NCBI GenBank assembly: GCA_014729085.1
Contig: WJKM01000016.1
Coordinates: 36,598 to 100,597, forward strand
Reading direction: 5' to 3'
DNA: 64,000 bases
From: Candidatus Dojkabacteria bacterium
GTDB taxonomy: Bacteria; Patescibacteriota; Dojkabacteria; B142; WJKM01
Below, one piece after another: positions 14,730 through 57,530 of the stretch. The notes under the pieces are model-generated. The model was not told where the DNA came from. It made no database searches and saw only the letters and a list, made by a program, of their open reading frames with translations. Positions within the stretch are counted from its first letter, which is position 1. Every line of letters begins with the position of its first letter. The translations under genes were made by a program, and so were the position numbers.

Positions 14730-16640
14730 TTAATCAATTTTAAGAGCTCCCATAAACGCCTCCTTAGGGATCTCGACATTACCAAATGTTTTTAAACGTT
14801 TTTTTCCTTTCTTTTGTTTCTCAAGTAATTTTTTCTTTCTGGTAACATCTCCTCCATAAAGTTTGGCTGTTACATCTTTTCTAAATGCGGGTATTGTTTC
14901 CCGGGCAATGACTTTCCCTCCGATTGCAGCCTGCAGTGCGACTTTAAATTGTTGTCTTGGAATAAGTTCTTTTAATTTTTCGACCATGGCTCTTCCTCTT
15001 GTCTCTGCATTTTCTCTATGAGTAAGGAATGAGAGTCCTTCTGCTGTTTCATAATTAACAAGTATTTTTACTTTAATTATGTCTGATTCACGGTATTCAA
15101 TGAATTCATAATCCATGGAAGCGTAACCTTGGCTTATTGATTTTAAATTATCAAAGAATGTGGTGATTATTTCTGCCGTTGGAATTTCGTATTTAAGTAG
15201 GACATGCTTTCTTTTACCCATAATCTCTGATGTAGAAAGATACTCCATTTTTTTGTAAACTCCCCTATGAGCCTGTGCAAGTTCCATTAGTCCACCAATG
15301 TAGTCTTCGGGTGTTAGAATCTCAAGACTAACCCAGGGTTCTTCTACTTTTTCGATAAGTGTTTGGTCTGGAAATTCTCCAGCACTTCGAATGTCAAAAG
15401 AACCATCGTTATTCTTATGGGCAACATTTAGATTAGGCACTTTGGACATGTCCTCTGTGGTAAGCCAAACGCGGTAGTCAACGGTTGGAGAGGTGGAAAT
15501 AAGATTCAAGTCAAATTCTCTATCGAGTCTTTCTGTGGTAATTTCTAGATGTAGGAGACCTAAAAAGCCGCAGTTGTAGCCAGATCCCAGAGCAACTGAG
15601 TTTTCTCTGTTGTATGTTAGAGCTGCATCGTTTAGGGCTAATTTTTCAAGAGCTTCTGAGAATTCTTTGAAATCATCTGCATCAACTGGAAACAATGTCG
15701 CATAAACCATTGGTTTTGGTGATTGGTACCCAGGCAGAGGTTCGATATTTTTCTCTTTGTATTCATAAGTCGTAAGAGTATCACCGACATGTAGAAGTTT
15801 AATATTTTTAAGACCTGTTGCAATATAGCCTACTTCACCTTTTTTTAAGTTTTCCTGTTTTACGAGTTTTGGCGTAATATAACCAATTTCAATAGGCTCA
15901 ACTTCTGTTTGATTGTTTATGCTAATCAATTTTTGGTTTTTTCGTATTTCCCCGTCTACAAGTTTTACAAGTACAACAACGCCTTTATGTTCATTGTAAA
16001 ATGAATCGTAAATTAGCAGACGTGGTTCTTCTTCAATTTTTTCAGTATTAATTTCTGGTGAGGGGCATCTTTCAATAATTGCATTAAGAAGATTTTCAAC
16101 TCCTTCTCCTGTTTTGCCAGATGTTAAGATTATGTCATTTTCATTGAATCCAAAAGTATCTATCAATTCCATTTTCGCCGAATCAACTTCCGCTGAAGGC
16201 AGGTCAATTTTATTGACTACTGGTATTATTTCGAGATCATATTCCAAGGCTTTGTAAACTGTAGAGAAAGTTTGAGCTTGAATACCTTGGGTTGCATCTA
16301 CAAGAAGTATTGCACCTTCACTTGCTGCTAAAGATCTGGATACTTCATAAGAAAAATCTACATGGCCAGGAGTATCAATCAGGTTTAATATATACTTTTT
16401 TTCTGAGTTGTATTTTTCTTTGTTTCCAGTATACTCAAATTTCATCCGAGCAGTTTGTAGTTTGATTGTAATACCTCTTTCTTGTTCCAGTTCCAATGTG
16501 TCTAATACTCTATCCTTCATATTTCGTTTTTCTACGGCTCCTGTAGCTTCTAATAGTCTGTCTGCAAGAGTAGATTTACCATGATCAATATGGGCAATAA
16601 TTGAGAAATTTCTTATTTTTTTTAAGTATTTAGTATTCAT
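14730..16640 (-). CDS. lepA: elongation factor 4 (LepA)
   Basis: The G domain reads AHIDHGKSTLADRLL, followed by DTPGHVDF. The EF4 C-terminal region is conserved and the length is 636 aa. Confidence 0.9.
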   Translation of the reverse strand: MNTKYLKKIRNFSIIAHIDHGKSTLADRLLEATGAVEKRNMKDRVLDTLELEQERGITIKLQTARMKFEYTGNKEKYNSEKKYILNLIDTPGHVDFSYEVSRSLAASEGAILLVDATQGIQAQTFSTVYKALEYDLEIIPVVNKIDLPSAEVDSAKMELIDTFGFNENDIILTSGKTGEGVENLLNAIIERCPSPEINTEKIEEEPRLLIYDSFYNEHKGVVVLVKLVDGEIRKNQKLISINNQTEVEPIEIGYITPKLVKQENLKKGEVGYIATGLKNIKLLHVGDTLTTYEYKEKNIEPLPGYQSPKPMVYATLFPVDADDFKEFSEALEKLALNDAALTYNRENSVALGSGYNCGFLGLLHLEITTERLDREFDLNLISTSPTVDYRVWLTTEDMSKVPNLNVAHKNNDGSFDIRSAGEFPDQTLIEKVEEPWVSLEILTPEDYIGGLMELAQAHRGVYKKMEYLSTSEIMGKRKHVLLKYEIPTAEIITTFFDNLKSISQGYASMDYEFIEYRESDIIKVKILVNYETAEGLSFLTHRENAETRGRAMVEKLKELIPRQQFKVALQAAIGGKVIARETIPAFRKDVTAKLYGGDVTRKKKLLEKQKKGKKRLKTFGNVEIPKEAFMGALKID

Positions 16641-29348: not shown

Positions 29349-30641
29349 TTATTTTACTTTTGCATAATCGGCTCCCATTACATTTGCTTTCTCTCCTAGT
29401 TCATCTTCTATTTCCATTAATCTGTTATATTTACAGACTCTTTCTCCTCTAGTTGGACCCACCTTTACAAATCCAGAATTAACTGCAACTGCAAGATCAA
29501 TCATCGAGGTGTCATTTACTTCCCCACCTCCTCGATGTGAAGGAACTGTCATCCATCCATTCTTTCGTGCAAGCATACAGCAATCGACTGTCTCTGTTAA
29601 AGAACCTATTTGATTGAGTTTAATCAATATTGCATCACCGGCTTTCTCGTCTATTGCTCTTTGCAGTCTTGTGGTATTTGTAACTGTTAAATCGTCAGTT
29701 ATATGAGGTACGTTAATTTTACTGGTAAATTTAGGCCAGTTTTCCCAATCATCTTCATGCAGCATATCTTCGACTGTTACAATTGGGTATTTGTCAAACC
29801 AGGGAAGATAGTACTCTATTAATTCTTCTGAAGAAAGTTCTTTGCCTTCTATAGAAAGAATATACTTACCGTTCTCAAAATATTCAGAAGCGGCTGCATC
29901 CATTGAAATCCCAACATCTTTACCAGGTGTATATCCAGCTTTTTTTATACTTTCTAGAATGAGTTGAAGAGGCTTTTCATTATTATTAAGTCCTGAAGGT
30001 GCGAAAGCGCCCTCATTACCAACATTTGTATTTAAATCAAGAGACTTTAAATGTTTCTTCAAGGCTATATAGATCTCTTCTCCCATACGTATATTTTCTC
30101 TCGCAGAATTGAATCCGAATGGTGAAATGATATATTCCTGAAGATCGGTTGACTGATGTGCATGTTTTCCTCCCTCAATAACAACCATCATAGGATTAGG
30201 TAGATAGTAATCAGAGATATTTAAATTATAAACTTGTCTAATATATTTATAAAGAGGAAGATTATTTTCATTTGCTGAGGCTTTTGCGACTGCTAATGAT
30301 ACACTTAGAATTGCATTACCACCAAGATTTGCTTTGTTTTCTGTAGCATCCATTTCAATCATTTTTTCATCAATTACTCTTTGTTCTTCTGCATTCAAAC
30401 CAATTAATTCGTTTGAAATTTTATCATTAACATTTGATACTGCTTTTAGCATGCCTTTTCCGTTATATCTGTTTTCGTCGTCGTCTGTCAAGACTGTGGC
30501 TTCATGCACACCGGCAGATGAACCGTAAGGGACAGAAGCCTTGCCTTTAGCTCCACTTTCTAGTTCCACATAAGCTTCAATTGTAGGTTTGCCTCCAGAT
30601 GCTAGAATTTCTCTTGCTCTTACTGATTTAATTTTTGACAT
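29349..30641 (-). CDS. eno: enolase
   Basis: The 430-aa product has an enolase N-terminus (SKIKSVRAREILASGGKPTIE) and the conserved metal and substrate motifs. Confidence 0.9.
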   Translation of the reverse strand: MSKIKSVRAREILASGGKPTIEAYVELESGAKGKASVPYGSSAGVHEATVLTDDDENRYNGKGMLKAVSNVNDKISNELIGLNAEEQRVIDEKMIEMDATENKANLGGNAILSVSLAVAKASANENNLPLYKYIRQVYNLNISDYYLPNPMMVVIEGGKHAHQSTDLQEYIISPFGFNSARENIRMGEEIYIALKKHLKSLDLNTNVGNEGAFAPSGLNNNEKPLQLILESIKKAGYTPGKDVGISMDAAASEYFENGKYILSIEGKELSSEELIEYYLPWFDKYPIVTVEDMLHEDDWENWPKFTSKINVPHITDDLTVTNTTRLQRAIDEKAGDAILIKLNQIGSLTETVDCCMLARKNGWMTVPSHRGGGEVNDTSMIDLAVAVNSGFVKVGPTRGERVCKYNRLMEIEDELGEKANVMGADYAKVK

Positions 30642-32167: not shown

Positions 32168-34075
32168 ATGCTAAAAAACATTATAAATTTTATTAAACTA
32201 CTCATATTTGTCTCAATTCCGTTATTGGTAATTTCTGTCTTTTCTCAAAAAACTTATGCTGCTCTTCCAGATACAAAAATAAGCGGAAAGAACTATATAG
32301 AAGCAGAATGGTCTGAAGATACGAATAGATGGATTTATAGGGATTATCATGTAAAATGGGAATTTGAACCACACAGACAAGATTTGGTAGATATGCAATA
32401 TGGTTTTTTAGATATATATATGAGCGAAGATGGAGGAGTAAATTGGAGAGATCAAAGATCAAATATTTGGACGGATACAGAGAAACAGACATCACATATT
32501 ATGGTATTGGCAGGTTTGGGTTGTAAATATGTTCGGGGAGAATGGAGTGATTTTGACAATGTATATTCTAAAACAAGTAATACGATAGAGATTTGTTTGC
32601 AAAGTCCCAATACAAGTTTGATTTTCCCGGATGTAGAGGAAAATAATATATTTAAAGATCATATCGAAGACCTGGCTACAAAAGAAATAATCAACGGTTA
32701 TTCAAATGGTTTCTATAAACCTAATTTCCCAGTTACTAGAGGTGCTTTAGCAAAAATTATGAAGAATTCAATTGATTTTCAAACTGATTTGTCATGCGAG
32801 GATTTTCCTGATGTTTACCCAGAGCATACTTTTTATGAACACATTAAAACTTTAAAGTGTAATGGAATTATTTCGGGATATCGAGATGGTACATTTAGAC
32901 CAAATGAGGTGGTAACACGAGGACAGGCTATGAAGTTTATTGTAAATGCTGTAAGGCATAAATATCACCTTAAATTTCCAGAATATAAAGCAGGAGAAAT
33001 CTTTCCAGATGTAACTCAGAACCATACTTTTTATAATTATATTAATTCCGCGGCTTCAATCGAACTTTATAGTGGTGAAAGAATAATAAATGGATATTCG
33101 AATGGGAATTTTGGTCCCGAAGATCCAATCTCAAGAGAACAGATTGCAAAAATTATTAATCAGACACTAGTTTATATTAAAGATGGTGGAAAAATTTCCA
33201 CACCGAATCCTTTTACTGAATTAGCTTTAGATAATTCCAGGGGTATTATTATAGAGGAGCTAATTCCAAATATTATTGGTCAGTATGATATTGATTTGGA
33301 TAGATATAATCCCGATTTAATTGAACCATTAGATCCTCCAGAAAATTTTGATATTCATTACTGGTTTTATTCCCACTTTATTAACCTGTATCCAATAGAT
33401 AAAAAACTAATTACTGATGTAACATTTTTTTCAGATGGATATTATGGAGTAATAGCAGCAGTCTATCGAGAAGGAGAAGATTTGTCTAAGTGGGGATTGG
33501 CAGTAGATGAATCTGATTTATATTACAAAGAGACTTCAGATGTGTTTGTTTTAGATCCCATGACTGCAATTCATGAAATAGCACATATTTATACCCTAAA
33601 TTCTGAAGAAATAGATATATATGAAGCAAGTTATGATGTCGGATCAATTGAGGAATTTATTAGTATGAATAAACAAAATAAGGCTACATGTCCAAATTTT
33701 TATACACTTGACGGATGTTCAAAACCATCTTCATATCTTAATCAGTTTTATGAAAATTTTTGGGAAGATAAGTACGCAGAATTCGTTGCTATTGAAGAGC
33801 TAAAGAGTCTTGAGGAGAAGGTAGACGCTTATGCTGATTTTATTTCAAAATATGGTGATGAGTATTTAACATGGTATGCTATTACAAGCCCAGAAGAGGA
33901 TTTGGCTGAATCCTTTGCAGTTTTTGTTTTATCAGATAAGCCAATGGAAAATTCAACTGTAGTTACCGATCACAAAATACTATTTTTCTATGATTATCCT
34001 GAATTAACTGAATTTAGAGAAAGGACTAGATCCAGAATCCAAACTAGTTATCCAGGATATTTAGATCTATTTTGA
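32168..34075 (+). CDS. secreted protein with three SLH domains and a C-terminal HExxH metallopeptidase-like motif
   Basis: There is a signal peptide. Three repeats read FPDV...GYxxGxFxP...TRGxxAK, typical of SLH domains. HEIAH lies in the C-terminal region. Confidence 0.6.
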   Translation: MLKNIINFIKLLIFVSIPLLVISVFSQKTYAALPDTKISGKNYIEAEWSEDTNRWIYRDYHVKWEFEPHRQDLVDMQYGFLDIYMSEDGGVNWRDQRSNIWTDTEKQTSHIMVLAGLGCKYVRGEWSDFDNVYSKTSNTIEICLQSPNTSLIFPDVEENNIFKDHIEDLATKEIINGYSNGFYKPNFPVTRGALAKIMKNSIDFQTDLSCEDFPDVYPEHTFYEHIKTLKCNGIISGYRDGTFRPNEVVTRGQAMKFIVNAVRHKYHLKFPEYKAGEIFPDVTQNHTFYNYINSAASIELYSGERIINGYSNGNFGPEDPISREQIAKIINQTLVYIKDGGKISTPNPFTELALDNSRGIIIEELIPNIIGQYDIDLDRYNPDLIEPLDPPENFDIHYWFYSHFINLYPIDKKLITDVTFFSDGYYGVIAAVYREGEDLSKWGLAVDESDLYYKETSDVFVLDPMTAIHEIAHIYTLNSEEIDIYEASYDVGSIEEFISMNKQNKATCPNFYTLDGCSKPSSYLNQFYENFWEDKYAEFVAIEELKSLEEKVDAYADFISKYGDEYLTWYAITSPEEDLAESFAVFVLSDKPMENSTVVTDHKILFFYDYPELTEFRERTRSRIQTSYPGYLDLF

Positions 34076-34133: not shown

Positions 34134-36311
34134 ATGGAAGAAGTTGAAAAAATTTATACAAAACCTTTTTTAAAAATTGAATCTGATGAACAGGATTTAA
34201 TTGGAGTACAAGGAACCACTGTAGCTAAAATTCTTCAGTCTGGCGTAAATTTACCTTCAGGATTTATAATAACTACACATGCATTCGATAATTTCTTGAT
34301 AGCAAATGATTTAGTTGCGGAAATTCAGGAAAGGATGAAAAATGTGGACAGCAAGAGTAGAAAGAAGCTCATAAACGCTTCAAATTTTGTAAATACATTA
34401 TTTAAGGAAGCGGTGATTCCTTCTTCAATTTATGATGCAATTCGGGTTTCCTATTCTAATCTTTTTGGATTGTCTAAGGGACTTGTGAAGCTATATCCTT
34501 CATGGATTCCTGAAGTTTATCCATATAATGCTGGTGTTGATCATAAATATAGTTTTACAGCTATAGAAGATATGAATAGTTTGGAAGAAGTAATTCTTAA
34601 GTCATGGCAGGTATTATTCGATCCAATGGCTATCTTCGAAAGATTTGAAAACAATTATAATGGAACTTTAAGTGTAGCATTGGTAGTTCAAAAGATGCTG
34701 AACGCCGAAATGTCTGGAAAGGCATATAGTTACAATCCCATTTCTAATGAAGAAAATGAAGTGGAAATAGAAGCATTGCTTGGTCTATACAAAGGAGTCG
34801 CAGAACTCGGAGTTATTCCCGATAGATATATTGTAAGCAAGGAGCATGAAAGAATTGTAGAAAAAAATACATCCGGGCAAAGAGAGATGATGGTTATGAA
34901 AGGGATGTTTAAGACAAAAGAAAGTAAAGAGCATATTGTAAAAGTCTCAAAACCTTGGCAAGTAAGACAAAAGATTTCGGATAAACAAATCCAAGAATTA
35001 ACAATAATTCTGAAGACTATAGAGCGAGAACTTGGAAAACAAGTTGAGCTTGAATGGGTAATTGAGACAGGTAAATTATATGTAGTAGATTTTAAAATTG
35101 GAAAGACATTAGAAAAATATAAATTGATGCAAGATGGAGAGGTAAAGAGAAGTATTAAAGTTGAACCCGGTATAGAAGTAGTAAGTCCTTCCGATCAAAG
35201 CAAGAAAAAGGAACCTAAGAAAACTTTAGATGATTATATTGATGAAATTGAACAAGAGATAGATAACTTTGGATCTGTTTCCGTTCCTCCAGAAGATATT
35301 AATAATAAGGCCTCATCTCTGGCGACTGAGATTAAGAAGGAGGAAAATACTCCCAAGAAAGTCAGTAAAGAACAAGCTAAAGAAAAAGAGGTAGATATTG
35401 AAAGGACTATAGAACCCAAGATACCTAAATTATGGAAGAAATTTACTTTTACCAAATTAAAAGATGTAGAGCCTCAAGTGGTTGATATTTGGCTTGATAT
35501 GAGCGAAGGATTAGTCAGAGGCGAATTAAATTCTAATGAATTTGATGGACTATACGGTTTATATGGTGAGGATCTTCTGGAAGGATTTGGTGTAAATATT
35601 GTGCATCTAGATAAAAAGCAATTAGTTAGTCTAAAAAATTACATAGTGGATCAAATCTTCGAATTGATAAGTCAAGACTTGAGCAAACACACAATATATT
35701 CCATTAGTAACCTGACACATAAACAAGCCGATAAATATTTAAACGAATCAAAAGAAGGTATAGATCTTCATCTTACAAATCAAATTCTTATTGAACAGGA
35801 ATTGGCTGCTATACGTGAAATAAGAGGGAAGAGGGGATATAGAAAGATTTGGGTCGGGATTAGAGGTCTGAATCAGGTTGAAGAACTAAAGAACATTAAA
35901 TCAATTATTTCGAAAGCAGGAATCAAAAGATCAAGTATGTTTAAAATATTTGTGGAAATAGATAAACTTCCAGTATTTTTGAATATTAATGATTACCTGA
36001 AAGAAAATGTGGATGGAGTTATTCTTTATTTAGATGTAATTTTTCAAAGTTTATTAGGGAATAAAATTTCTATCCAAGAGGTATTGGAAAATGATGTCTT
36101 TTGGGATATGGTCGAGAAATTATCACTACAGATTCATAAAAAGGGACGAACATTTTTTGTTAATTCAAATGTGCTTGCAAGTACAGATGAATTGATTTTG
36201 AAACTTTTAAAGCTTGGAATAAATGGTGTATGTATCGGAGGGGAGAAGATATACGATATGCGTAAAAATTTAACAAAACTTGAAAGACAAATCCTGAAGC
36301 AGAAGAAGTAG
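34134..36311 (+). CDS. PEP synthase/PPDK-like protein (PPDK_N nucleotide-binding domain and C-terminal PEP-utilizer-like barrel) lacking a recognisable phosphohistidine domain
   Basis: The N-terminus reads GVQGTTVAKILQSGVNLPSGFIITTHAF, which matches PPDK_N. The middle ~200 aa are a K/E-rich low-complexity region where GGRTSHAA would be expected. The C-terminus is barrel-like. Confidence 0.5.
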   Translation: MEEVEKIYTKPFLKIESDEQDLIGVQGTTVAKILQSGVNLPSGFIITTHAFDNFLIANDLVAEIQERMKNVDSKSRKKLINASNFVNTLFKEAVIPSSIYDAIRVSYSNLFGLSKGLVKLYPSWIPEVYPYNAGVDHKYSFTAIEDMNSLEEVILKSWQVLFDPMAIFERFENNYNGTLSVALVVQKMLNAEMSGKAYSYNPISNEENEVEIEALLGLYKGVAELGVIPDRYIVSKEHERIVEKNTSGQREMMVMKGMFKTKESKEHIVKVSKPWQVRQKISDKQIQELTIILKTIERELGKQVELEWVIETGKLYVVDFKIGKTLEKYKLMQDGEVKRSIKVEPGIEVVSPSDQSKKKEPKKTLDDYIDEIEQEIDNFGSVSVPPEDINNKASSLATEIKKEENTPKKVSKEQAKEKEVDIERTIEPKIPKLWKKFTFTKLKDVEPQVVDIWLDMSEGLVRGELNSNEFDGLYGLYGEDLLEGFGVNIVHLDKKQLVSLKNYIVDQIFELISQDLSKHTIYSISNLTHKQADKYLNESKEGIDLHLTNQILIEQELAAIREIRGKRGYRKIWVGIRGLNQVEELKNIKSIISKAGIKRSSMFKIFVEIDKLPVFLNINDYLKENVDGVILYLDVIFQSLLGNKISIQEVLENDVFWDMVEKLSLQIHKKGRTFFVNSNVLASTDELILKLLKLGINGVCIGGEKIYDMRKNLTKLERQILKQKK

Positions 36312-38684: not shown

Positions 38685-39635
38685 TTAATTACAAATTTCT
38701 GCTTTATCTGAACTTCCAAGAATATTGATTTTATGTTTTACTTGTTCTTTAATTGCAGCCCGACCCGGTCCTAGATACTTTCTTGGATCAAACACTTCTG
38801 GTTTGGTTGCAAATACTTCTCTAATTTTTGCTGTCATTGCCATTCTCAGATCAGTATCAATGTTTATTTTGCAAATCGAAAGTTTTGCAGCTTGAGTTAC
38901 TGCTTTGTCTGGGACGCCCATTGCATCGGGCATTTTGCCACCATATTTATTAATTAAGTCTTTAAATTCGACTGGGACATTGCTAGATCCGTGCATAACA
39001 AGAGGAACACCAGGTAACTTAGCTGCAGTATTCTCAATTACATCAAATGCAAGTTTAGGTTCGGATTTGAATTTATAAGCACCATGACTAGTTCCGCATG
39101 CAATTGCGAGAGAATCGCAATTTGTTTTCTCAACAAATTCTACTGCTTGGTCTGGATTAGTTAGAAATTTACTTATATCTTCATGACTTACTCCTACTAC
39201 ATGCTCTTCAACACCTCCTAATTGGCCAAGTTCGGCTTCAACAGTTACATTGTATTCATGAGCATATTCTACTACACGTTTTGTAATTTCGATATTTTTT
39301 TCAAATGGTTCTTTGGATGCATCAATCATTACGGAAGTAAATCCTGCATCAACAGCTTTTTTACAGGATTCAAAACTATCTCCATGATCTAGATGCATAG
39401 CCATAGGAATATCTGGATGTTGTTCTGATCCATTTTCTATAAGGGACTTCAAGTATTCGATTCCGGCATATTTCCATGCTCCAAGAGAAATCGCGATAAT
39501 AACAGGAGAGCTTTCTTCGACAGCTGCTTCTAAAATACCTTGAAAAATTTCCATGTTATTAATATTGAAAGCTCCTATTGCAAAGTTTTGTTTGTAAGCA
39601 ATTTCAAACATTTTTTTTGTATTTACGAGTGTCAT
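38685..39635 (-). CDS. fba: class II fructose-bisphosphate aldolase (short type)
   Basis: It contains FAIGAFNINN and MHLDHG plus the metal ligands. The start is placed at MTLVNTKK by alignment to short class II FBAs; the ORF track extends it 15 codons further upstream. Confidence 0.8.
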   Translation of the reverse strand: MTLVNTKKMFEIAYKQNFAIGAFNINNMEIFQGILEAAVEESSPVIIAISLGAWKYAGIEYLKSLIENGSEQHPDIPMAMHLDHGDSFESCKKAVDAGFTSVMIDASKEPFEKNIEITKRVVEYAHEYNVTVEAELGQLGGVEEHVVGVSHEDISKFLTNPDQAVEFVEKTNCDSLAIACGTSHGAYKFKSEPKLAFDVIENTAAKLPGVPLVMHGSSNVPVEFKDLINKYGGKMPDAMGVPDKAVTQAAKLSICKINIDTDLRMAMTAKIREVFATKPEVFDPRKYLGPGRAAIKEQVKHKINILGSSDKAEICN

Positions 39636-39767
39636 AATGAGTGATATAAAATTTAATACTTTATTGTAGCATCTAGACATGAGGACGAAAATTAGAAACT
39701 ATATTCGATTTCAACTTAAGAGTAACAAAGTGACTTGAAATCATACAAATGCTATATTTGATCAACT

Positions 39768-41053: not shown

Positions 41054-42070
41054 ATGGCAGTTAAATTTGCTATAAATGGTTTTGGTCGTATTGGACGTAT
41101 GGTCTTTAGACGATTATTTGAAAAAAACATGCTTGATGGACAAGTTGAGCTAGTAGCAATAAATGATTTGGTTCCTGCAAAGAATTTAGCATATTTACTA
41201 AAGTACGATAGTGTTCATGATGTATGGGAAAAAGATGTAAAAGCTCTTTCTGATGAGCTCATAAAGGTAGATGGAATGGAGCTTAAAACTCTATCCATGA
41301 AAGTTGGACCGGAAGATTTGCCTTGGGAAGAATTAGGTGTAGATGTGGTCTTAGAATCTACTGGGCTTTTTGCTAAAAAGAAAAAATACGAAGGGCATCT
41401 TAAAGCAGGAGCTGGAAAGGTCCTTATATCTGCTCCAAGCGATCCAGAGACAAAAACAATTGTTATGGGAGTTAATGATGACTCATATGAGGGAGATAAA
41501 GTTGTATCAAATGCAAGTTGTACGACAAACTGTCTTGCTCCATTAGTTCATGTGTTATTAAAAGAAGGTATTGGACTGGAAGAGGGGATTATGTCAACGA
41601 TACATAGTTATACTGTTTCTCAGGGGATTTTGGATGGTCCTTCTAAAAAGGATTTCAGACGAGGCAGAGCAGCTGCTGAAAATATAGTTCCTACAACAAC
41701 CGGAGCAGCAAAAGCAGTGGGGCTTGTTATTCCTGAAGTTCAGGGTAAACTTACTGGAATGGCTTATAGGGTACCGACTCCAGATGGGTCAATTGTAGAT
41801 CTAACAGTTAGAACTGAAAAGGAAACTTCATTAGATGAGATAAATGGATTGATGAAAAAAGCAAGTGAAACATATTTAAATGGATATCTGGAATATACAG
41901 AAGAACCACTTGTCTCAAGAGACATTGTGCATAATTCTCACTCATGTATCTATGATGCAAATGGCGGAATTGAATTAAACTCAAAATTTTTCAAATTACT
42001 TGGATGGTATGACAATGAATGGGGCTATTCCTGCAGAATTGTTGATTTATTGGAAAAGATGATTTCTTAA
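41054..42070 (+). CDS. gap: glyceraldehyde-3-phosphate dehydrogenase (type I)
   Basis: NGFGRIGR is the NAD site and SCTTNCLAP holds the catalytic Cys. The length is 338 aa. Confidence 0.9.
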   Translation: MAVKFAINGFGRIGRMVFRRLFEKNMLDGQVELVAINDLVPAKNLAYLLKYDSVHDVWEKDVKALSDELIKVDGMELKTLSMKVGPEDLPWEELGVDVVLESTGLFAKKKKYEGHLKAGAGKVLISAPSDPETKTIVMGVNDDSYEGDKVVSNASCTTNCLAPLVHVLLKEGIGLEEGIMSTIHSYTVSQGILDGPSKKDFRRGRAAAENIVPTTTGAAKAVGLVIPEVQGKLTGMAYRVPTPDGSIVDLTVRTEKETSLDEINGLMKKASETYLNGYLEYTEEPLVSRDIVHNSHSCIYDANGGIELNSKFFKLLGWYDNEWGYSCRIVDLLEKMIS

Positions 42071-42180: not shown

Positions 42181-43404
42181 ATGTATAAACGTGAAAATCT
42201 GGATAATTTACTAAACAAAGCTAATTATCAAAACGCTGATTTATCAAATTCGAAAGTATTGGTTAGAGCTTGCCTTAATGTGAAAATAAAAGATGGAGTA
42301 ATTAAGGACAGGACAAGGCTTGATTCAGCTTTACCATTAATAAAAGAATTAGCAGAGAAATCCAAAAGAGTTGTAATAATGGCCCATCTTGGAAGACCCG
42401 AAGGGAGAGATTCCAAATTTAGTTTTGAGCTTGTTAGAAAAGCAATGGAGGATAATTTAGGTGAACAAGTAACAATGCTTGAGTATTTAGATGATGATAT
42501 AAATAAGTTAAGTGAAGACTACCAGAAAGATAGAAGAGTTTTTTTACTCGAAAACATTAGATTCTTTGAGGGAGAGCAATCCAAAGACGAAGAAGAAAGA
42601 AATGAGTTTTCCAGAAAACTTTCTGGTTTAGGAGAAGTTTTTATTAATGATGCTTTTCCAGATTACAGGCCTGCTCCATCCACTGTTGGTGTAGTTGAAT
42701 ACTTACCTTCTTATATTGGTCCTGCATTTATGAATGATGTTAAAGCTTTATCGAAGTTTGGTGATCCCGAACGGCCATATATCGCAGTGGTAGGTGGCTC
42801 AAAGCTTTCTGAAAAAGTTGATGTAATTGATTCTCTTGTTGAATACACAGATAAGGTTTTAGTTGGAGGGGCATTGGTTTATACATTATTAAAATCTATT
42901 GGTATTGAAGTTGGGAACTCATTAATAGAAGAAGATAAACTTCATATTGCAGAAGAGATTATGCGAGAGCATAAGGATAAAATTTTACTTCCAGTAGATC
43001 ACGTGGTAGTTGAAGAATTTGAAGAACCAGAAGATGAATCTGGATACAAAATCATTGATGATCAAGCTATTCCTGAAGATAAAACAGCCGTTGATATCGG
43101 ACCTCAGACACTTAAGATTTATAAGGAGAAAATTCGTCAAGCAAAATCAGTAATGTGGAATGGCCCTATGGGTGTTTTTGAATGGAAAATTGCAGGGAGG
43201 GGTACTCAAGAAATAGGTAGAACTATTGCAAAAAATAAAGAAGCTTTCACGCTTATTGGAGGGGGAGATTGTATTGCTTCAGTTCATAAATATGGTATTG
43301 AAGGATTTGATTATATTTCCAATGGAGGAGGAGCTATGCTTTCATTCTTTTCCTATGATGATTTTGAAATTTTAGACGTAATTCTGGATAAGTTTGAGAA
43401 GTAA
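42181..43404 (+). CDS. pgk: phosphoglycerate kinase
   Basis: It contains VLVRACLNV, MAHLGRP and GGGA..., and the length is 407 aa. Confidence 0.9.
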   Translation: MYKRENLDNLLNKANYQNADLSNSKVLVRACLNVKIKDGVIKDRTRLDSALPLIKELAEKSKRVVIMAHLGRPEGRDSKFSFELVRKAMEDNLGEQVTMLEYLDDDINKLSEDYQKDRRVFLLENIRFFEGEQSKDEEERNEFSRKLSGLGEVFINDAFPDYRPAPSTVGVVEYLPSYIGPAFMNDVKALSKFGDPERPYIAVVGGSKLSEKVDVIDSLVEYTDKVLVGGALVYTLLKSIGIEVGNSLIEEDKLHIAEEIMREHKDKILLPVDHVVVEEFEEPEDESGYKIIDDQAIPEDKTAVDIGPQTLKIYKEKIRQAKSVMWNGPMGVFEWKIAGRGTQEIGRTIAKNKEAFTLIGGGDCIASVHKYGIEGFDYISNGGGAMLSFFSYDDFEILDVILDKFEK

Positions 43405-43443: not shown

Positions 43444-44544
43444 TTAGTCCCCAAAACAAACTCCAATACTTCTTGCAACCCGGACAATTTCAGAGTCTGG
43501 ATCGACCATTTTTAAACCACTGACTGCTTCCCTTATATCCACCATTTTTATTTCACCTCCTCTAAGACAGACCATTTTTCCAAAGTTTTGATTATGAACA
43601 GCATTCATAGCCGCTACTCCATATCTGTAAGAAAGAATTCGATCTTCTGCGTTTGGCATTCCGCCTCTTTGTAAATGTCCTAATACTAAGGTTCTCATCT
43701 CAAATTCATTAGGTGCAATTTGTTTTATTCTTTCCATAACATAGTCAGCTATTCCACCTAAATGGACTTCCTGAGTTCCGCCTATATTATCAGTTGCAAG
43801 TTTTTCCATATCTTTTTCTTTTGCACCTTCTGCAACGGCAATAACAGTCGATCTTTCCCCAATTTCAACTCTGGATCTTAGGAAATTCACAATATTTTCA
43901 ACTTTGAAAGGAATTTCAGGAATAAGAATTACTTTTGAACCTCCACCTAATCCGCCATATAATGCAAGCCAACCGGTATATCTTCCCATAACTTCGATTA
44001 TGATAACTCTATCGTGGCTCATAGCAGTAGAATGGATTTTTCCATGGGCTTCGGTAACAATATCAACTGCAGTACTTAGTCCAAAAGTTCTGTCGGTCCC
44101 TCTAAGATCATTATCTATGCTTTTGGGAACAGCTACAATATTAATGCCCATTTCTTCCTGAAGTTGAAGAGCTCCAGCCTGAGTACCATCACCTCCTATT
44201 ACTATCAATGCCTCAATTCCTAGTCGATCAATATTGGATTTAGCTTCTTCAAGTATTTCGGTAGGGATTCTTCTTTCTTCACCAGCTCCCACTTTTGCAG
44301 CAAATCTTCCTTTATTCACTGTTTGCAGAATAGTTCCTCCCAGGTGGCTAATGCCTCTTACTGTATCTAAGTTCATAGGTATATATCTTGCTGGATTTAA
44401 CACACCTTCGAATCCGTATCTAAAACCAATAAATTCATAACCCAAAGAAACACCTGTTTTGACTACTGCACTGAGTACAGCATTCATTCCTGCACAGTCT
44501 CCTCCAGAATTAACTATTCCAATACGTTTGGCTTGTTTTTCCAT
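43444..44544 (-). CDS. pfk: 6-phosphofructokinase (PfkA family; phosphoryl donor not determinable from sequence)
   Basis: It contains GIVNSGGDCAGMNA and GGDGT, and the length is 366 aa. Confidence 0.8.
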   Translation of the reverse strand: MEKQAKRIGIVNSGGDCAGMNAVLSAVVKTGVSLGYEFIGFRYGFEGVLNPARYIPMNLDTVRGISHLGGTILQTVNKGRFAAKVGAGEERRIPTEILEEAKSNIDRLGIEALIVIGGDGTQAGALQLQEEMGINIVAVPKSIDNDLRGTDRTFGLSTAVDIVTEAHGKIHSTAMSHDRVIIIEVMGRYTGWLALYGGLGGGSKVILIPEIPFKVENIVNFLRSRVEIGERSTVIAVAEGAKEKDMEKLATDNIGGTQEVHLGGIADYVMERIKQIAPNEFEMRTLVLGHLQRGGMPNAEDRILSYRYGVAAMNAVHNQNFGKMVCLRGGEIKMVDIREAVSGLKMVDPDSEIVRVARSIGVCFGD

Positions 44545-44564: not shown

Positions 44565-45230
44565 TTATGTTAAATAGGGTGAAATAAATTCGTTTATTTT
44601 TTCTGTTCTATTTTCTGCTTTTGTAAATGCTGATGCAATTAAGAATCCTTTTGCTCCAAGTTCAAGACCTACTTTAATATCTTTGCCTGTGCTTACCCCT
44701 GCTCCGATTAAAGGTAAAGTCTTTCCGGAACAGATTTCAATAAATTCTTTTACTATCTCTGGTTTTTCATTAGAAACAGATCTCCCAGATCCTATGAGCT
44801 CTTTTGGTTCGTAAGCTATTGCATAAGGTTTTGCTTCAAGTAATTTTGAAGCTTCTTTTGTATCTTCGCAGCAGACAACTACTTTGATGCCATTTTCTTG
44901 GATAAATCGTATTTGATTTTTAAGTTCATTGGGTTTTACTCTATGTTCGCTATGATTCAACATTGTGATTTCAACACCTAAGTTTTTTATAGAAGGAACG
45001 GGCGACCATCCAGTTTTACTTCCATCTTCTATTGCGTCGGTATGCTGGCACATTATGTTCAATTCTGGAAAATCAAGGACTGCTCTATTCAAGTCAATCA
45101 TTGCAGGTGCAATGTAAACAATTTCATTAAAATCATCGGTGTTTTTTCTGTTATTGTCTAATTCTTTTAGTACGTCTAATACTTTTTGGCCTGTACACTG
45201 AGGATAAGTTTTAAAGTTTAGTATGATCAT
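44565..45230 (-). CDS. tpiA: triosephosphate isomerase, archaeal-type short form
   Basis: The length is 221 aa. LNFKTY, MLNHSEHR, AYEPKELIGSG, GAGVSTGKD and LIASAFTKA match archaeal TIMs (about 225 aa; compare EPPELIGTG) rather than the ~250-aa bacterial form (AYEPVWAIGTG). Confidence 0.8.
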   Translation of the reverse strand: MIILNFKTYPQCTGQKVLDVLKELDNNRKNTDDFNEIVYIAPAMIDLNRAVLDFPELNIMCQHTDAIEDGSKTGWSPVPSIKNLGVEITMLNHSEHRVKPNELKNQIRFIQENGIKVVVCCEDTKEASKLLEAKPYAIAYEPKELIGSGRSVSNEKPEIVKEFIEICSGKTLPLIGAGVSTGKDIKVGLELGAKGFLIASAFTKAENRTEKINEFISPYLT

Positions 45231-45378
45231 TTGATGCAGGATAAATTAACTAAAATAGTTTGTTCTCTATAATTTATAAGATTGGGCAATTTTTCTCAAG
45301 TAGGGATTATATACTTTTTTAAAATCTATTAATTATACAAATTTTATTAATTTAGTTAATATATTGCTATAAAGATTA

Positions 45379-46839
45379 TTGAGACCAAATAAAATGAGTA
45401 AAATTAACAAACTTTATACAGAAAAACATCTCCAAGCTTCTAATTTATTATTTCAAGATGCGCATATACATTTAGAGGGTGTTTTGTCTTCCGATATAAA
45501 TTTTATCGAAGTTTTTAAAGAAGCTGTCGAATATTCATATCAAAATGATAAGTTTAAAAATCAATTTGAGAAGATTACTAAAAATAAAATCACTGATGTG
45601 GTAGACCGGTATATAAAATCTATGAAAAAAAATGGTGAGAAAAAGACGCTTTCGTTTTTTAATTTCCTAAACAGATTATTTAGTTCTAAAATAATTTTAG
45701 CTAGTGATTACAATATAATACGACAGTACGTAAAGCTAGTATTAGGTGAATACTTTAAAGTGTTTTGGAAAATACGACTTGGTATTACTCCTTCAATTCC
45801 ATTAGAGTTTCCTCACTTGAAAGTTGAAAATTGGAATGCAGCTGTTTTTGAATCAGTTTTATCCTGCATCTATGAGGATGAAAAACGGTCGGCATGTTTA
45901 GTAATTGAGACAAAAAGACAACATTTATCTTCTAAAAAGAACAGTAAATATTATTTTGAGTATAATCTTAAATTGCTTAAAGATTACCATTCGTCCACAA
46001 ATCAAAGATTACGGTTTTCTTTGAGTATTTGTGATGATGCAAGTAAGTATCCTCTTTTTAATAAAAATTTTAGTCGTAATTTTGAAAAGTATATTTTAAA
46101 GGCAAAGCAATTTTCAAATACAAATATTTCGATTCATATGCTCGAATCTTTGCCAAAAATCAAATTTGTAGATAAAAACTTAAAAAAGAAGGTTTCAAAT
46201 AATAAAACCTATGAATTGGATTTTGTATTGGAAATATTAAATAAACATAAGATATTTGGAGTAAATTACATACATATGAGTCATTTATTCTCAGGAATAA
46301 ATCCAAATCCTAAGAAACGAAAAAAAAGCGACGAAGTGAAAATTCAGAAAGGGATTAACTATTTAGAAAAAATTAAACAAAGAGGAGATAGAATAATTGT
46401 ATGTTTATCAAGTAGTGCGTATTTGAATAATCCTTTCTTGCTTGATTATCCTGAGTTCATAAGGTTTATGATAGAGAACGATTTGTGTGTTACGCTAGGA
46501 ACAGATGATCCATATCCTTTTAAAGTGAGAGATATTGGAGAGGAACTTAATAAAGTAGAGAAAAGAATAAAAGAAGGATACCCAAATGGAATAAAGATAA
46601 AGGATGATAAATTTATAGATTCAGATCATTTATCTAAAATTGTAAAACTTCTACTTGGTAGAAATTCTTGGCGATTATGGGATGAAAGAGCCAGGAAATG
46701 GAAATTTCCGGACAAGGATTTTATTCAAAGATTAGAACTTGATTGCAATGTGTTCCAGAAAACACTTTGTTTTGATATTTGTCCTGAGAATGAAGATTTG
46801 ATAAATGGTCAGATAAAAGAAGTGTTTAGGCGTTCTTAG
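45379..46839 (+). CDS. divergent adenosine/AMP-deaminase-like metal-dependent hydrolase
   Basis: DAHIHLEG compares with HxHLDG and VTLGTDDPYPF with SLNTDDP. The middle metal-ligand region is altered. The 486-aa length is well beyond canonical ADA. Confidence 0.45.
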   Translation: MRPNKMSKINKLYTEKHLQASNLLFQDAHIHLEGVLSSDINFIEVFKEAVEYSYQNDKFKNQFEKITKNKITDVVDRYIKSMKKNGEKKTLSFFNFLNRLFSSKIILASDYNIIRQYVKLVLGEYFKVFWKIRLGITPSIPLEFPHLKVENWNAAVFESVLSCIYEDEKRSACLVIETKRQHLSSKKNSKYYFEYNLKLLKDYHSSTNQRLRFSLSICDDASKYPLFNKNFSRNFEKYILKAKQFSNTNISIHMLESLPKIKFVDKNLKKKVSNNKTYELDFVLEILNKHKIFGVNYIHMSHLFSGINPNPKKRKKSDEVKIQKGINYLEKIKQRGDRIIVCLSSSAYLNNPFLLDYPEFIRFMIENDLCVTLGTDDPYPFKVRDIGEELNKVEKRIKEGYPNGIKIKDDKFIDSDHLSKIVKLLLGRNSWRLWDERARKWKFPDKDFIQRLELDCNVFQKTLCFDICPENEDLINGQIKEVFRRS

Positions 46840-52829: not shown

Positions 52830-54713
52830 TTGAAAAGTATATATATTAAATTAATCTGTAAAGAAATTATACAAAAAATGGAGATGTTTAAAGAAATCAA
52901 AAATAGTCTTTTTAGAAATGGTAATAAGTTAGAAGATAACGAATCCTTTTCAATCAAAAAGGCTACAATTGGGAGTAAGGATATAAAGCTATCACCGAAC
53001 TCTATTGTGATTATTACAGGAGAGAATGGTGCAGGAAAGACTACATTATTAAACGAAATAAGTCGAAGTATCAAAACTAAGATTGAAGGAAAAATACTTA
53101 CATCCGTAGAATTAAATGACGTAAAACCATCGAATCTTGAGACCTATTTTTCACATAGGTTTTCTAGTAGATATTCTTCTGATTGGGGGGAATTCTGGGT
53201 ATATAAAGGAGGAGCGATTGCAAAAAAGGATATTGAAGCCTATTCTAACAATCCCTCAGATAAATATCTGACCACTGTAATAGAAGATACCAGTATAGAA
53301 AAAAATTTTAGTATTCAAGATAAAAATGTGCAAGATATAATTGAAAATTTTAAAGTTGAGTTTTTAGATACCACTAGTCGTTTAGAAATAACCCTCCCAA
53401 AAGATCGGTATGATATGAATAGTAATGAAACCTCTGAACACATTCATATATTACAAAAAGATAAAGAATTACTTGAGAATGTATCAGAAGCAATGAGGAA
53501 AACTTTCGGGAAAGGTATAGTTATTAATCAAGGTGGATCAAAGAAAGTATGGTTTCATTACGGTGAAATTACATCAAAGAATATTTCACCCATAAGTTCA
53601 GATTACCTAACTAAATTAAATAAACTTCCTTTATTACATCAACAAGGAGATGGTATCAAAGCTTTCATGGGAATTCTTTTATCTCTTTATTGTGGTAAAA
53701 CCCCATATTTATTTATAGATGAGCCAGATTTGTTTCTTCATCCCCCACAAGCAAGGCAACTTGGAGAATTGGTTGCTACAAGTGCATCATCGGAGAATAA
53801 AAATAGACAAATATTCCTAGCTACTCATTCAAAAGATTTTATTGAAGGGCTTATTAACACAGGTAGTAATGTGACTCTTGTCCGCCTTGGAGAAAAAAAC
53901 TCAAAAGGAGACGTTACGATTTATGAATCGAACAAATTAAAAAACATAGGGTCACGCGATTTCCTTAAATTTAGTGAATCAATAAATGGTCTCTTTTATA
54001 AAGGTATAGTATTATGCGAGGGAGGCGATGACTTAACATATTATAAATTCATCTCAAAGCTATATTACAAAGAAAAGAATCTTCCATTATCTAAAGAGCT
54101 ATTTTTTATTAATTGTGGAGGTAAAAGTGAGATTGTTAAATATGCCAATCTTTTAAGAGAGTTAGACATTAATTTCTCAATAATATTTGATATTGATATA
54201 CTTCGAAGTAAAGATTTACTAAAAAAACTAAGGAATTTATATATAGAATTTCCTTCAACTAAGGAAATAAATAAAACAGTCGCTGAACTAGAAAAGAAAG
54301 CATATGAAAAAATTAATAAAACACTAAACTTTGATTCACTAAAAAAGCTTGTTAAAAAATTTCATGATTCAATAGACCAAGAAAAGATGCCAGATAAGAA
54401 AGATGTCGAAGATTTTAATAAATTTATAGGAAACAAACGAAAATGGAAAGTTATAAAAGGATCAGGTAGTACAATTTTAACAGGCCACTCGATTACCGAT
54501 TGGCAAAAACTTATTGAAAATTTCAAGAAATTAGGTATTTTTATAGTACCAGTTGGAGAATTGGAATCTTGGGATAAAAAAGCTGGTAGTAAAAATAGTT
54601 CTAATTGGATTGAAAATGCTATTGATGGGAAAGATGAAGAATTTCTCGAAAAAAATAAAGAGCTAAATAAATTCATAAAGTACTTATTCCAATTTCATGA
54701 GATAGTGGAATAA
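52830..54713 (+). CDS. OLD-family nuclease (N-terminal ABC-type ATPase + C-terminal TOPRIM)
   Basis: Walker A is TGENGAGKTT, Walker B is LFIDEPDLFLHP and the H-loop is LATHS. The C-terminal TOPRIM has VLCEGGDD followed by FDIDIL acidic motifs. Confidence 0.65.
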   Translation: MKSIYIKLICKEIIQKMEMFKEIKNSLFRNGNKLEDNESFSIKKATIGSKDIKLSPNSIVIITGENGAGKTTLLNEISRSIKTKIEGKILTSVELNDVKPSNLETYFSHRFSSRYSSDWGEFWVYKGGAIAKKDIEAYSNNPSDKYLTTVIEDTSIEKNFSIQDKNVQDIIENFKVEFLDTTSRLEITLPKDRYDMNSNETSEHIHILQKDKELLENVSEAMRKTFGKGIVINQGGSKKVWFHYGEITSKNISPISSDYLTKLNKLPLLHQQGDGIKAFMGILLSLYCGKTPYLFIDEPDLFLHPPQARQLGELVATSASSENKNRQIFLATHSKDFIEGLINTGSNVTLVRLGEKNSKGDVTIYESNKLKNIGSRDFLKFSESINGLFYKGIVLCEGGDDLTYYKFISKLYYKEKNLPLSKELFFINCGGKSEIVKYANLLRELDINFSIIFDIDILRSKDLLKKLRNLYIEFPSTKEINKTVAELEKKAYEKINKTLNFDSLKKLVKKFHDSIDQEKMPDKKDVEDFNKFIGNKRKWKVIKGSGSTILTGHSITDWQKLIENFKKLGIFIVPVGELESWDKKAGSKNSSNWIENAIDGKDEEFLEKNKELNKFIKYLFQFHEIVE

Positions 54714-55475: not shown

Positions 55476-57530
55476 AAAAAGACCATAACACTTTTAATAA
55501 TATCGGCCGTCGCTTTAATTTCTATTTATTCGCTGTGGTACATATCTAATCATAATGTTGCACCCAAAGACTCTAATGCATCAACAGAAAACCTTGAACG
55601 AAACTGGTTATATAAAAAATCAATAACTATTGACAATCCCACCTCAACAGAAGTTAACGACTACGCATTAAAGGTTAATTTATCTGATATACAAAAGTAT
55701 CTTAAGTCAGATTGTGGAGACTTAAGATTTACTGATAGTAATAACAATATATTAAATTATTGGATAAGAAAATGTGATGATTCAGGAGTTATTGCTCATG
55801 TAAAGGTTGATCTGAAAGCAGACAAAAATACTGATCCAATAAATGTTTATTATGGGAATAATTCTGCTGAAAGCAAATCTAATGGGAAAATGACATTTGA
55901 TTACTTTGAAGACTTTGACAACTTTAACCCTACTGTAAAATTCGGATTAATAACAGATTTACATCATGACACCAATAATAAGAATTATTGGAAAGGCATG
56001 GACTTAGAAAAACAATACCTCATGAACGCACGTCCAAAGTTACGTAACTTTATCAACAGTATGAATAATTGGGAAGCTAACTTTATAGTAAATCTTGGTG
56101 ACTTTATTACAGCAGAAAATTATAATACGCATTATGGTGGATTGGCTATTAATGAATCAGTAGAATTACCTGAACAAGCATTCAAGGCTTTACAGGAAAT
56201 GGAGAATGAGTACCAGAAATTCGATGGTAATAGATATTATGTTCATAGCAACCATGAATTTTATAACTTGAGCCTGTCCGATATACATGGGAAGAATCAC
56301 ATATTGTGTAGTAAAAATCCAGAATTGCCCTGCGGTATTGGTGGTCAGGGAGCAACATTAAACCAATCTAATGGCATTAACCAATCATATTATTCATTTG
56401 ATAGAGGAGGCGTTCATTTCGTGCTAATTGACTTACAATATAAGCCTCATACAAATATTCACAGAGGCCCTGAAGGTGAATCCGATTATGGAATCAACTA
56501 CATGAATAAAGATCAATTGAACTGGCTTAAAAATGACTTATCTGATACAAGAAGTCCAATAATCATTTTTTCTCCTACAAGAATTGATGATACTGATTAT
56601 CTCTCCGATGAAGAATGCGACACATCAGATATTATTGAATATTGTACGAACTATGAAGAAAATCCTTCCCTTGCTACAAGTCAATGTAAGGATTTTTATC
56701 AATATAGAAATGTAGTCAATAAAGACGAAATTCAGTCAGTAATAGCAGATAATAATGATAGAGTCCTAGCGGTTTTCCAGGGAAATGAACATTTAAATAC
56801 AAGAGCGATTCAGGACGGGGTACACTACATTACAGTGAATGCTGCTGATCAGGAAAACACCTGGTTCGTAAATTACCTGAAAGTTGAAATTGATCCAGTA
56901 TCCAAACTTATTTCAGTTATTAGTGGTAATTCTCCTCAAAGTACTTATTCAATAACTTATAACGATGGCTATATGGAATTGAAAAATAACACAGAAGCAA
57001 CCTATTTACCATCATTACTACCAACAAAGAATCACTTGGAAGACGACATGATCGTAGAAGCCGAATGGGAAATAACAAATAATAATGCTAATACAGGCAA
57101 ACAGTTTGCAATAGGCTATTGGAGAGATGCGGATTTTTTAAAAATTAGACATAGGTGTGCCACAACTCCAAGACCGCGAGAATATACACTCACAAGTGTA
57201 CGTAAATTGGATTCATATTATATGGGAGAAGGTTTTGGTGTTGAAACAGTTATTAACTCGAAAAGTTACAAAAATTCAATAGATTTAAAAAATACTGCTG
57301 ATTCTGGTCATCTGTGGTTGCATTACTCCAATGATACACTCAAATCTTGGTTCAGGTCTTCCCAAGGGGGAGGATTTCTTGGCGAGAATAAATACCCACA
57401 TATTCCTAAAGATGTTCTTTATCCCGGTGCTTGGGTCTTTAATAAAACTAATGCCAAGGTTGATTATTTTATTGTTCGTAAAACGGTTCAAGACGAAAAC
57501 AATGAAGAACCTCTTGGCTCATTGAATTAA
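55476..57530 (+). CDS. secreted or membrane-anchored DUF2341-domain + calcineurin-like metallophosphoesterase protein; start codon unresolved
   Basis: Downstream of the listed ATG (55890) are GLITDLHHD, NLGDFI and VHSNHEF, the DxH/GDxx/GNHE metallophosphatase motifs. The in-frame upstream sequence encodes a signal anchor (TFNNISAVALISIYSLWYIS) and a DUF2341-like segment (WLYKKSITIDNP...GDLRFTD...VYYGN). There is no ATG/GTG/TTG before the stop at 55473. Confidence 0.5.
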   Translation, partial: KKTITLLIISAVALISIYSLWYISNHNVAPKDSNASTENLERNWLYKKSITIDNPTSTEVNDYALKVNLSDIQKYLKSDCGDLRFTDSNNNILNYWIRKCDDSGVIAHVKVDLKADKNTDPINVYYGNNSAESKSNGKMTFDYFEDFDNFNPTVKFGLITDLHHDTNNKNYWKGMDLEKQYLMNARPKLRNFINSMNNWEANFIVNLGDFITAENYNTHYGGLAINESVELPEQAFKALQEMENEYQKFDGNRYYVHSNHEFYNLSLSDIHGKNHILCSKNPELPCGIGGQGATLNQSNGINQSYYSFDRGGVHFVLIDLQYKPHTNIHRGPEGESDYGINYMNKDQLNWLKNDLSDTRSPIIIFSPTRIDDTDYLSDEECDTSDIIEYCTNYEENPSLATSQCKDFYQYRNVVNKDEIQSVIADNNDRVLAVFQGNEHLNTRAIQDGVHYITVNAADQENTWFVNYLKVEIDPVSKLISVISGNSPQSTYSITYNDGYMELKNNTEATYLPSLLPTKNHLEDDMIVEAEWEITNNNANTGKQFAIGYWRDADFLKIRHRCATTPRPREYTLTSVRKLDSYYMGEGFGVETVINSKSYKNSIDLKNTADSGHLWLHYSNDTLKSWFRSSQGGGFLGENKYPHIPKDVLYPGAWVFNKTNAKVDYFIVRKTVQDENNEEPLGSLN

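Follow-up and report, generated by a model that had tools for sequence, protein, structure and literature searches.

How does a triosephosphate isomerase (TIM) of archaeal appearance come to stand in the glycolytic gene block of a bacterium? The question is raised by the tim gene of the window, by which we mean the whole 64-kb stretch of DNA analysed here. A sequence-only reading of this DNA had proposed an inter-domain replacement of tpiA in a "CPR or symbiont" host. Of these two, CPR proved correct: a protein identical to the tim product is already present in NCBI, where it is routinely annotated as TIM, and because it carries the label Candidatus Dojkabacteria, the host is assigned to the CPR (Patescibacteria).

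Family assignment and predicted function

The archaeal hallmarks pointed out in the sequence-only reading were all found in the tim product: NFKTY at residues 5–9, LNHSEHR at 91–97, EPKELIGSG at 141–149, GAGVSTG at 176–182, and TKA at 203–205. The archaeal length that it ascribed to the protein is also confirmed, as its 221 aa coincide with the median of archaeal-type TIM chains (5–95% range, 214–237 aa; n = 201); the median of bacterial-type chains is 255 aa (239–263 aa; n = 50). The protein matches the Pfam TIM family PF00121 with E = 3.7e-32, and scores 188.8 bits against the archaeal TIM profile NF003302/PRK04302, for which the cut-off is 132, its residues 1–218 aligning with positions 5–221 of the 223 in the profile. 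In the NCBIfam profile search it stays under every cut-off for bacterial TpiA. It reaches 109.9 bits with TIGR00419 (cut-off 130.6) and at most 43 bits with the PRK00042 bacterial TpiA equivalogs, whose cut-offs are 255–309 (NF000728, 42.9 versus 255; NF000729, 26.7 versus 309; NF000722, 18.9 versus 293 bits).

The four best sequence matches in the PDB are archaeal TIMs (1hg3, 5csr, 2h6r, and 1w0m; E = 1e-36 to 6e-29), and the bacterial and eukaryal TIMs all have E-values of 2e-8 or higher. The solved enzymes of the archaeal family, from Pyrococcus woesei (1HG3), Thermoproteus tenax (1W0M), Methanocaldococcus jannaschii (2H6R), and Thermoplasma acidophilum (5CSR), are 29–35% identical to the window TIM and have in common with it a chain length near 221 aa, the four catalytic residues (Asn, Lys, His, and Glu), and three motifs, NHSE(H/R)R, EPxELIG(S/T)G, and GAG(V/I)S. 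Its predicted fold agrees with theirs at TM scores of 0.83–0.92. The setting differs, however: the host of the window TIM is a mesophilic, AT-rich CPR bacterium, tim lies among bacterial-type gap, pgk, and pfk genes, and its product belongs to a Dojkabacteria-centred bacterial subclade. Bacterial TpiA (TIGR00419; PRK00042; b3919 of E. coli) has in common with the window TIM the reaction (predicted here), the barrel fold, the catalytic residues, and a gene position near gap-pgk, tpiA following pgk in 59 PGK-anchored loci. In contrast, it is about 255 aa long, 21–26% identical to the window TIM, and carries the motifs YEPVWAIGTG, YGGS, and GGASL, where the window TIM has YEPKELIGSG, GAGVS, and ASAFTKA.

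The AF2 model of the protein, built on the 28-sequence alignment A1, is a (beta/alpha)8 barrel with a mean pLDDT of 95.6 and a pTM of 0.91. When it was compared with the PDB by Foldseek, ranks 1–15 were all taken by archaeal TIM chains (1hg3, 1w0m, 5css/5csr, 2h6r), with TM scores of 0.78–0.92 (0.9 for 1hg3 and 1w0m) and rmsd of 1.5–2.6 Å; bacterial and eukaryal TIMs gave TM scores of about 0.75 and rmsd of 3–4 Å. The model is that of a monomer. TIMs of hyperthermophilic archaea are tetramers, and that of T. acidophilum is a dimer.

The catalytic residues N5, K7, H93, and E141 align with those of the P. woesei enzyme and are invariant in alignment A1, as is the phosphate-binding G176-A177-G178. 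Other predicted features are a lid loop, P142–V152, and a phosphate grip formed by G176-A177-G178 and S200/A205. Since the active site is conserved and the gene stands among glycolytic ones, the protein is predicted to interconvert dihydroxyacetone phosphate and glyceraldehyde-3-phosphate, and would be the working TIM of the organism. In the mechanism usual for TIMs, the substrate would be polarised by Lys7 and Asn5, His93 would serve as the electrophile and Glu141 as the base, and the P142–V152 loop would shut over the substrate phosphate, held by G176-A177-G178 and the S200 region.

It might be argued that the protein has drifted to another function, such as that of a different sugar-phosphate isomerase or a ThiG-like chemistry, and that the true TIM is encoded elsewhere in the genome, of which 64 kb are in view. 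A weak secondary Pfam match to ThiG (E = 1.4e-6) points in the same direction. However, ThiG is a usual cross-match of phosphate-binding barrels, present among the Pfam domains of many homologues, archaeal ones included. Moreover, alignment A1 shows no variation in the four catalytic residues or the phosphate-binding motifs, the NF003302 score is above a curated TIM subfamily cut-off, and tim stands among glycolytic genes in several lineages. We therefore regard such a drift as very improbable.

Phylogenetic position and direction of transfer

A scan of GTDB species representatives found at least 577 loci with relatives of tim. The best 80 of them comprise 69 archaeal loci, spanning DPANN, Thermoplasmatota, Thermoproteota, Hadarchaeota, Bathyarchaeia, methanogens, and one Asgard genome, and 11 loci of Patescibacteria or other bacteria, including Dojkabacteria J137, BroJett037, Gracilibacteria, Peregrinibacteria, and Peribacteria. 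Neighbour-joining (NJ) trees were constructed from Kimura distances over 215 columns with two outgroups. The first consisted of E. coli TpiA (NC_000913, b3919) and the yeast, human, and G. stearothermophilus enzymes (200 replicates), and the second of 50 bacterial-type TIMs, E. coli TpiA plus 49 of the 59 from PGK-anchored metagenome loci (150 replicates). The archaeal-type clade, with the window TIM inside it, had 100% bootstrap support in the first tree, and in the second all 150 replicates separated it from the 50 bacterial-type TIMs, the swap of outgroup leaving the result unchanged. In none of these 150 replicates did the window TIM join the bacterial-type sequences, to which its top identity is 25.6%. 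Thus the outcome that the sequence-only reading had set against its own proposal, a short clade nested within the bacterial TIMs, is excluded.

A similar appearance could in principle have been reached by convergence, if a bacterial TpiA had been shortened by the loss of helices. The TIM fold and the catalytic residues are indeed common to both types, and E. coli TpiA is 26% identical to the window TIM across 153 aa. But the complete split in the bootstrap replicates, the identities of at most 25.6% to bacterial types versus 31–40% to archaeal ones, and the agreement of the HMM and fold rankings on the archaeal type leave this explanation with hardly any credibility. Profile HMMs, sequence comparison, predicted fold, and phylogeny all place the window TIM in the archaeal-type family and not with bacterial TpiA.

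Inside this family, the window TIM forms a clade with P0003, P0026, L001–L003, and L087, all labelled as relatives from Dojkabacteria or Patescibacteria. This labelled set fell in a clade without labelled archaea in 146 of the 150 replicates, and in 172 of 200 with the first outgroup. Relatives within this Dojkabacteria-centred clade, which takes in every labelled Dojkabacteria sequence, show 40–53% identity. The window TIM itself is 44–52% identical to labelled Dojkabacteria-like sequences, 34–40% to those of other CPR, 31–40% to labelled archaeal TIMs, and 21–26% to bacterial TIMs. The strict bootstrap of the exact 54-member Dojkabacteria-like cluster is 14%, because unlabelled rogue sequences drift in and out of it; therefore we scored whether the labelled CPR set fell in a clade free of labelled archaea. 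The sister of the clade varies among replicates. In most of them it is formed by a few unlabelled sequences in bacterial contexts, one of which (P0031) adjoins the gene for an F-type ATPase delta subunit, and no archaeal donor could be named among these sisters.

Several of these features would also fit a short TIM that was never imported, being either ancestral in deep-branching CPR or born in CPR and passed on to Archaea. The Dojkabacteria clade is a deep one, no archaeal sister of it is resolved, and when the NJ tree is rooted with the outgroup the clade branches close to the bottom of the archaeal-type sequences; in addition, transfers from CPR to DPANN have been suggested in the case of RuBisCO (PMC6389311). 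However, the outgroup that roots the tree sits on a very long branch, and support at the deep nodes is at most 28%. Among the best 80 loci, every archaeal phylum sampled has the family but only some CPR lineages do, and most CPR TIMs track the bacterial CPR phylogeny, as the text of Jaffe et al. 2020 (BMC Biol 18:69, PMC7304191) has it. Overall, we consider a CPR origin unlikely. Because of the broad archaeal and patchy CPR distribution of the family in the best 80 loci, parsimony, rather than a rooted test, argues for transfer from Archaea to CPR.

The Gracilibacteria/Peregrinibacteria/Peribacteria group was united with the Dojkabacteria clade in no replicate of either tree (0/150 and 0/200). 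Tentatively, and with slightly more doubt than trust, we propose that archaeal versions of TIM have displaced the resident one in CPR on at least two independent occasions, in the Dojkabacteria-centred clade and in this second group. One event may date to the origin of the Dojkabacteria-centred clade or earlier, followed by integration into the gap-pgk-pfk cluster, and the other may have taken place within the Gracilibacteria/Peregrinibacteria/Peribacteria group, whose sequences lie close to those of DPANN. Alternatively, as the backbone of the trees is weakly supported, a single transfer may have been followed by CPR-to-CPR spread. If the double displacement is true, tpiA would be a recurrent target of archaea-to-CPR orthologous replacement.

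Genomic context and age of the gene

The features of the window and the aldolase genes adjoining tim in other genomes are listed in Table 1. The earlier description of fba (class II), gap, pgk, and pfk beside tim as bacterial in type agrees with their family profile matches, and the same is true of the distant eno and gpmI, both of which score over their TIGRFAM cut-offs. The archaeal type II GAPDH model gives the window gap product only 15.7 bits. That the genome as a whole is bacterial, as was also claimed, is supported by the class A RNase P RNA and by LepA.

Table 1. Coordinates of features in the window and of aldolase genes next to archaeal-type tim in other loci
Feature	Position	Strand	Assignment and evidence
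tim	44565..45230	-	ATG-started ORF, 221 aa; archaeal-type triosephosphate isomerase
pfk	43444..44544	-	PfkA-family 6-phosphofructokinase; PF00365, 1.6e-90; NF002872, 343 bits (cut-off 253)
pgk	42181..43404	+	phosphoglycerate kinase, convergent with pfk; PF00162, 3.4e-111
gap	41054..42070	+	type I (bacterial/eukaryal) GAPDH; TIGR01534, 422 bits (cut-off 367)
fba	38685..39680	-	class II fructose-bisphosphate aldolase; PF01116, 9e-101; TIGR01859, 355.6 bits (cut-off 343)
gpmI	11579..13135	+	cofactor-independent phosphoglycerate mutase; TIGR01307, 385.6 bits (cut-off 330.65)
eno	29349..30641	-	enolase; TIGR01060, 495.5 bits (cut-off 300)
lepA	14730..16640		LepA, bacterial marker
RNase P RNA	2309..2696	-	bacterial class A; RF00010, 148.9 bits (gathering score 100)
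intergenic region	45231..45378		148 nt, AT-rich, between tim and the divergent ORF
candidate promoter	45359..45332	-	promoter-like TTAACT-16-TATAAT in the intergenic region upstream of tim
divergent ORF	45379..46839	+	486 aa; faint likeness to TIGR01430 adenosine deaminase, E = 7e-4, residues 321-395
VirB4-like ATPase	151..1971	+	conjugal transfer/type IV secretion, CD1110 family; NF045971, 399 bits (cut-off 325)
probable surface protein	4347..6842	+	large; fn3 and C-terminal dockerin type I domain
probable surface protein	32168..34075	+	large; S-layer homology repeats
725-aa protein	34134..36311	+	PPDK_N (PEP-utilising enzyme, ATP-binding) as sole domain detected
OLD-family gene	52830..54713	+	OLD-family ATPase and TOPRIM nuclease; Pfam AAA_21, OLD-like_TOPRIM; adjoins tRNA-Gly and tRNA-Pro
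ORF downstream of OLD-family gene	55890..57530		546 aa
FbaB-type aldolase after tim, L001	2379..3449		
FbaB-type aldolase after tim, L002	6709..7776		
FbaB-type aldolase after tim, L084/L085	6713..7780		
FbaB-type aldolase after tim, L086	6660..7730		
short DhnA-family aldolase immediately before tim, L004	5231..5992		DPANN archaeon
short DhnA-family aldolase immediately before tim, L006	4624..5316		DPANN archaeon

The pfk gene starts 20 nt downstream of the tim stop codon on the same strand, and no terminator-like site was seen in this gap. Judging from the gene arrangement, tim and pfk probably form a two-gene transcription unit. The consensus scan for promoters around tim returned 9 sites versus 7.8 expected in shuffled sequence, which is not an excess, and the terminator scan around tim was likewise not above the shuffled expectation.

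The base composition of tim is that of its surroundings, with GC of 0.339 and GC3 of 0.235 versus averages of 0.326 ± 0.036 and 0.239 ± 0.034 over 44 ORFs of the window, and its codon usage falls inside the spread of window genes of similar length. The glycolytic neighbourhood is also found elsewhere. The gene order is pfk ... pgk-gap followed by tim in L002 (BroJett037), pgk-pfk-tim in L003 (Dojkabacteria J137), and pgk-gap, tim ... pfk-gpmI in L086, and in L087 tim is followed by a 338-aa ORF on the same strand and then by pgk. The PGKs adjoining archaeal-type tim in L002, L003, and L087 are 46–53% identical to the window pgk product, and homologues of the window pfk lie near archaeal-type tim in L002, L003, and L086. 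More distant relatives of tim are found in other bacterial contexts, next to eno-pyk in L082 and L083, and near the genes for an F-type ATPase delta subunit, PFOR, and glycogen metabolism in L084 and L085.

A scan of metagenome contigs with the single PGK sequence gave no matches. When the contigs were rescanned with the PGK alignment A2, the only close relative among the matches listed was L087, and it carries an archaeal-type tim. By contrast, a bacterial-type tpiA follows pgk in the 59 PGK-anchored loci of other bacteria, whose PGKs are 35–41% identical to that of the window; compared with E. coli TpiA, these tpiA products score 59–224 bits, and their scores with the window TIM do not exceed 48 bits.

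Since archaea account for the great bulk of the family among labelled genomes (69 of the best 80 of at least 577 GTDB loci), one could suspect an assembly or binning artefact, in which an archaeal fragment was misjoined into a bacterial contig. However, 20 nt separate tim from a bacterial pfk and less than 1.2 kb from pgk, all on a contiguous 64 kb with a bacterial RNase P RNA; its GC, GC3, and codon usage are like those of the host; and its association with bacterial gap, pgk, and pfk recurs in the independent assemblies L002, L003, L086, and L087. For the archaeal-like TIM cases of Jaffe et al. 2020, the text of that paper likewise describes the scaffolds as verified to be of CPR origin (PMC7304191). 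An artefact of this kind has next to no likelihood. Rather, the host-like GC and codon usage, the proximity of pfk, the archaea-free clade, and the recurrent gap/pgk/pfk neighbourhood point to an old acquisition of tim followed by vertical descent, with no sign of recent import.

A class I aldolase of the FbaB/DhnA type (355 aa; NF006707, 488–594 bits) is encoded immediately 3' of archaeal-type tim in five CPR relatives, and a short DhnA-family aldolase gene directly precedes tim in DPANN archaea (Table 1). Co-transfer of tim with a class I (DeoC-family) aldolase was considered and rejected: the CPR and archaeal aldolases are only 25–30% identical, so a joint transfer is without support. The CPR FbaB-type aldolase scores 594 bits with NF006707 versus only 68 bits with the archaeal model NF040816. 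The window has no such class I aldolase gene, and its lineage uses a class II FBA instead.

The translation of the window pfk reads GGDGT and PKSIDND. By PFK signatures, we take the Gly to stand at an ATP-type position and the Lys at a PPi-type position, and the phosphoryl donor is therefore ambiguous. With the TIGR02483 'PFK_mixed' model the protein scores 365 bits, below the cut-off of 430. According to the text of Jaffe et al. 2020, PFK is missing in nearly all CPR lineages and is likely of lateral origin where present (PMC7304191).

Some other genes of the window deserve mention. The OLD-family gene is a probable anti-phage defence gene, its PADLOC matches being to Old (1.6e-20) and, more weakly, to AriA and GajA; the 546-aa ORF downstream of it had no match in PADLOC. 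For the 486-aa ORF divergent from tim, the TIGR01430 likeness was the sole match, Pfam and PADLOC searches giving none. The 725-aa protein is possibly a PEP synthase/PPDK-like enzyme, relevant to lower glycolysis.

Probable displacement of tpiA in the carbon metabolism of CPR

Has the archaeal-type gene replaced the bacterial one? In tblastn searches of the 64 kb with both E. coli TpiA and the window TIM, the only match was the tim ORF itself, and no bacterial-type tpiA was found in this part of the genome. The proposal of an inter-domain replacement is thus shown in part: the archaeal-type placement, the absence of a bacterial tpiA from the 64 kb, and the TIM type of the relatives agree with it. 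Its genome-wide completeness is what we infer, because TIM is near-universal in CPR in the text of Jaffe et al. (PMC7304191), the window TIM is the sole one in 64 kb, and the archaeal type stands beside gap, pgk, or pfk in relatives.

Taken as a whole, it is very likely that the window encodes a working TIM of archaeal type that was laterally acquired by an ancestor of this Dojkabacteria lineage, displaced tpiA, and has been kept by vertical descent in a glycolytic cluster. In this scenario, an ancestor of the Dojkabacteria lineage would have gained the short tim from Archaea, and the gene would have taken over the role of bacterial tpiA. It would then have been inherited vertically, shifting to the composition of the host, and become wired into the bacterial glycolytic cluster, where it is probably co-transcribed with pfk and adjacent to gap-pgk.

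The phenomenon is already known in CPR, and the window case is one instance of it, as Jaffe et al. 2020 reported a subclade of CPR TIMs that clusters with archaeal references, as clear evidence of lateral transfer (PMC7304191). The window shares with these cases a CPR host scaffold and a TIM that groups with archaea. The examples given in their text are Microgenomates, Katanobacteria, and Peregrinibacteria, with no mention of Dojkabacteria; nevertheless, Dojkabacteria are of the same deep group as the lineages named there, the group without ribosomal protein L9, and Dojkabacteria TIMs must have been in their tree. The Dojkabacteria-centred clade of the window TIM never joins the Peregrinibacteria, Gracilibacteria, and Peribacteria sequences in our trees. 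A literature search under the wording 'archaeal-type' TIM in bacteria returned nothing relevant. With the phenomenon on record since 2020 and the protein carrying a routine TIM annotation in NCBI, the swap opens no new question. What we add here is the separation of the Dojkabacteria-centred clade from the Peregrinibacteria/Gracilibacteria clade, the integration of tim in the gap-pgk-pfk cluster, and its full compositional amelioration.

Exchange of carbon-metabolism genes between Archaea and CPR has been documented for Dojkabacteria in the case of RuBisCO forms and the AMP pathway (PMC5113843, PMC6389311). The archaea-derived enzymes of Dojkabacteria and other CPR include form II/III and III-like RuBisCO, AMP phosphorylase, R15P isomerase, cupin PGI, and archaeal-like PGM, all of which, like the window TIM, are archaeal-type enzymes in a reduced bacterial carbon metabolism (PMC5113843, PMC6389311, PMC7304191). 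These enzymes, however, serve accessory or patchy functions, whereas TIM is a near-universal core enzyme of CPR, and the window case is therefore one of orthologous displacement and not of gain of function. It represents a clean, well-anchored cross-domain swap of a core glycolytic enzyme in a CPR bacterium with a reduced genome, and could mark Dojkabacteria and their relatives as a lineage. Together with RuBisCO, the AMP pathway, PGI, and PGM, it supports the picture of CPR central carbon metabolism as a mosaic with many archaeal parts.
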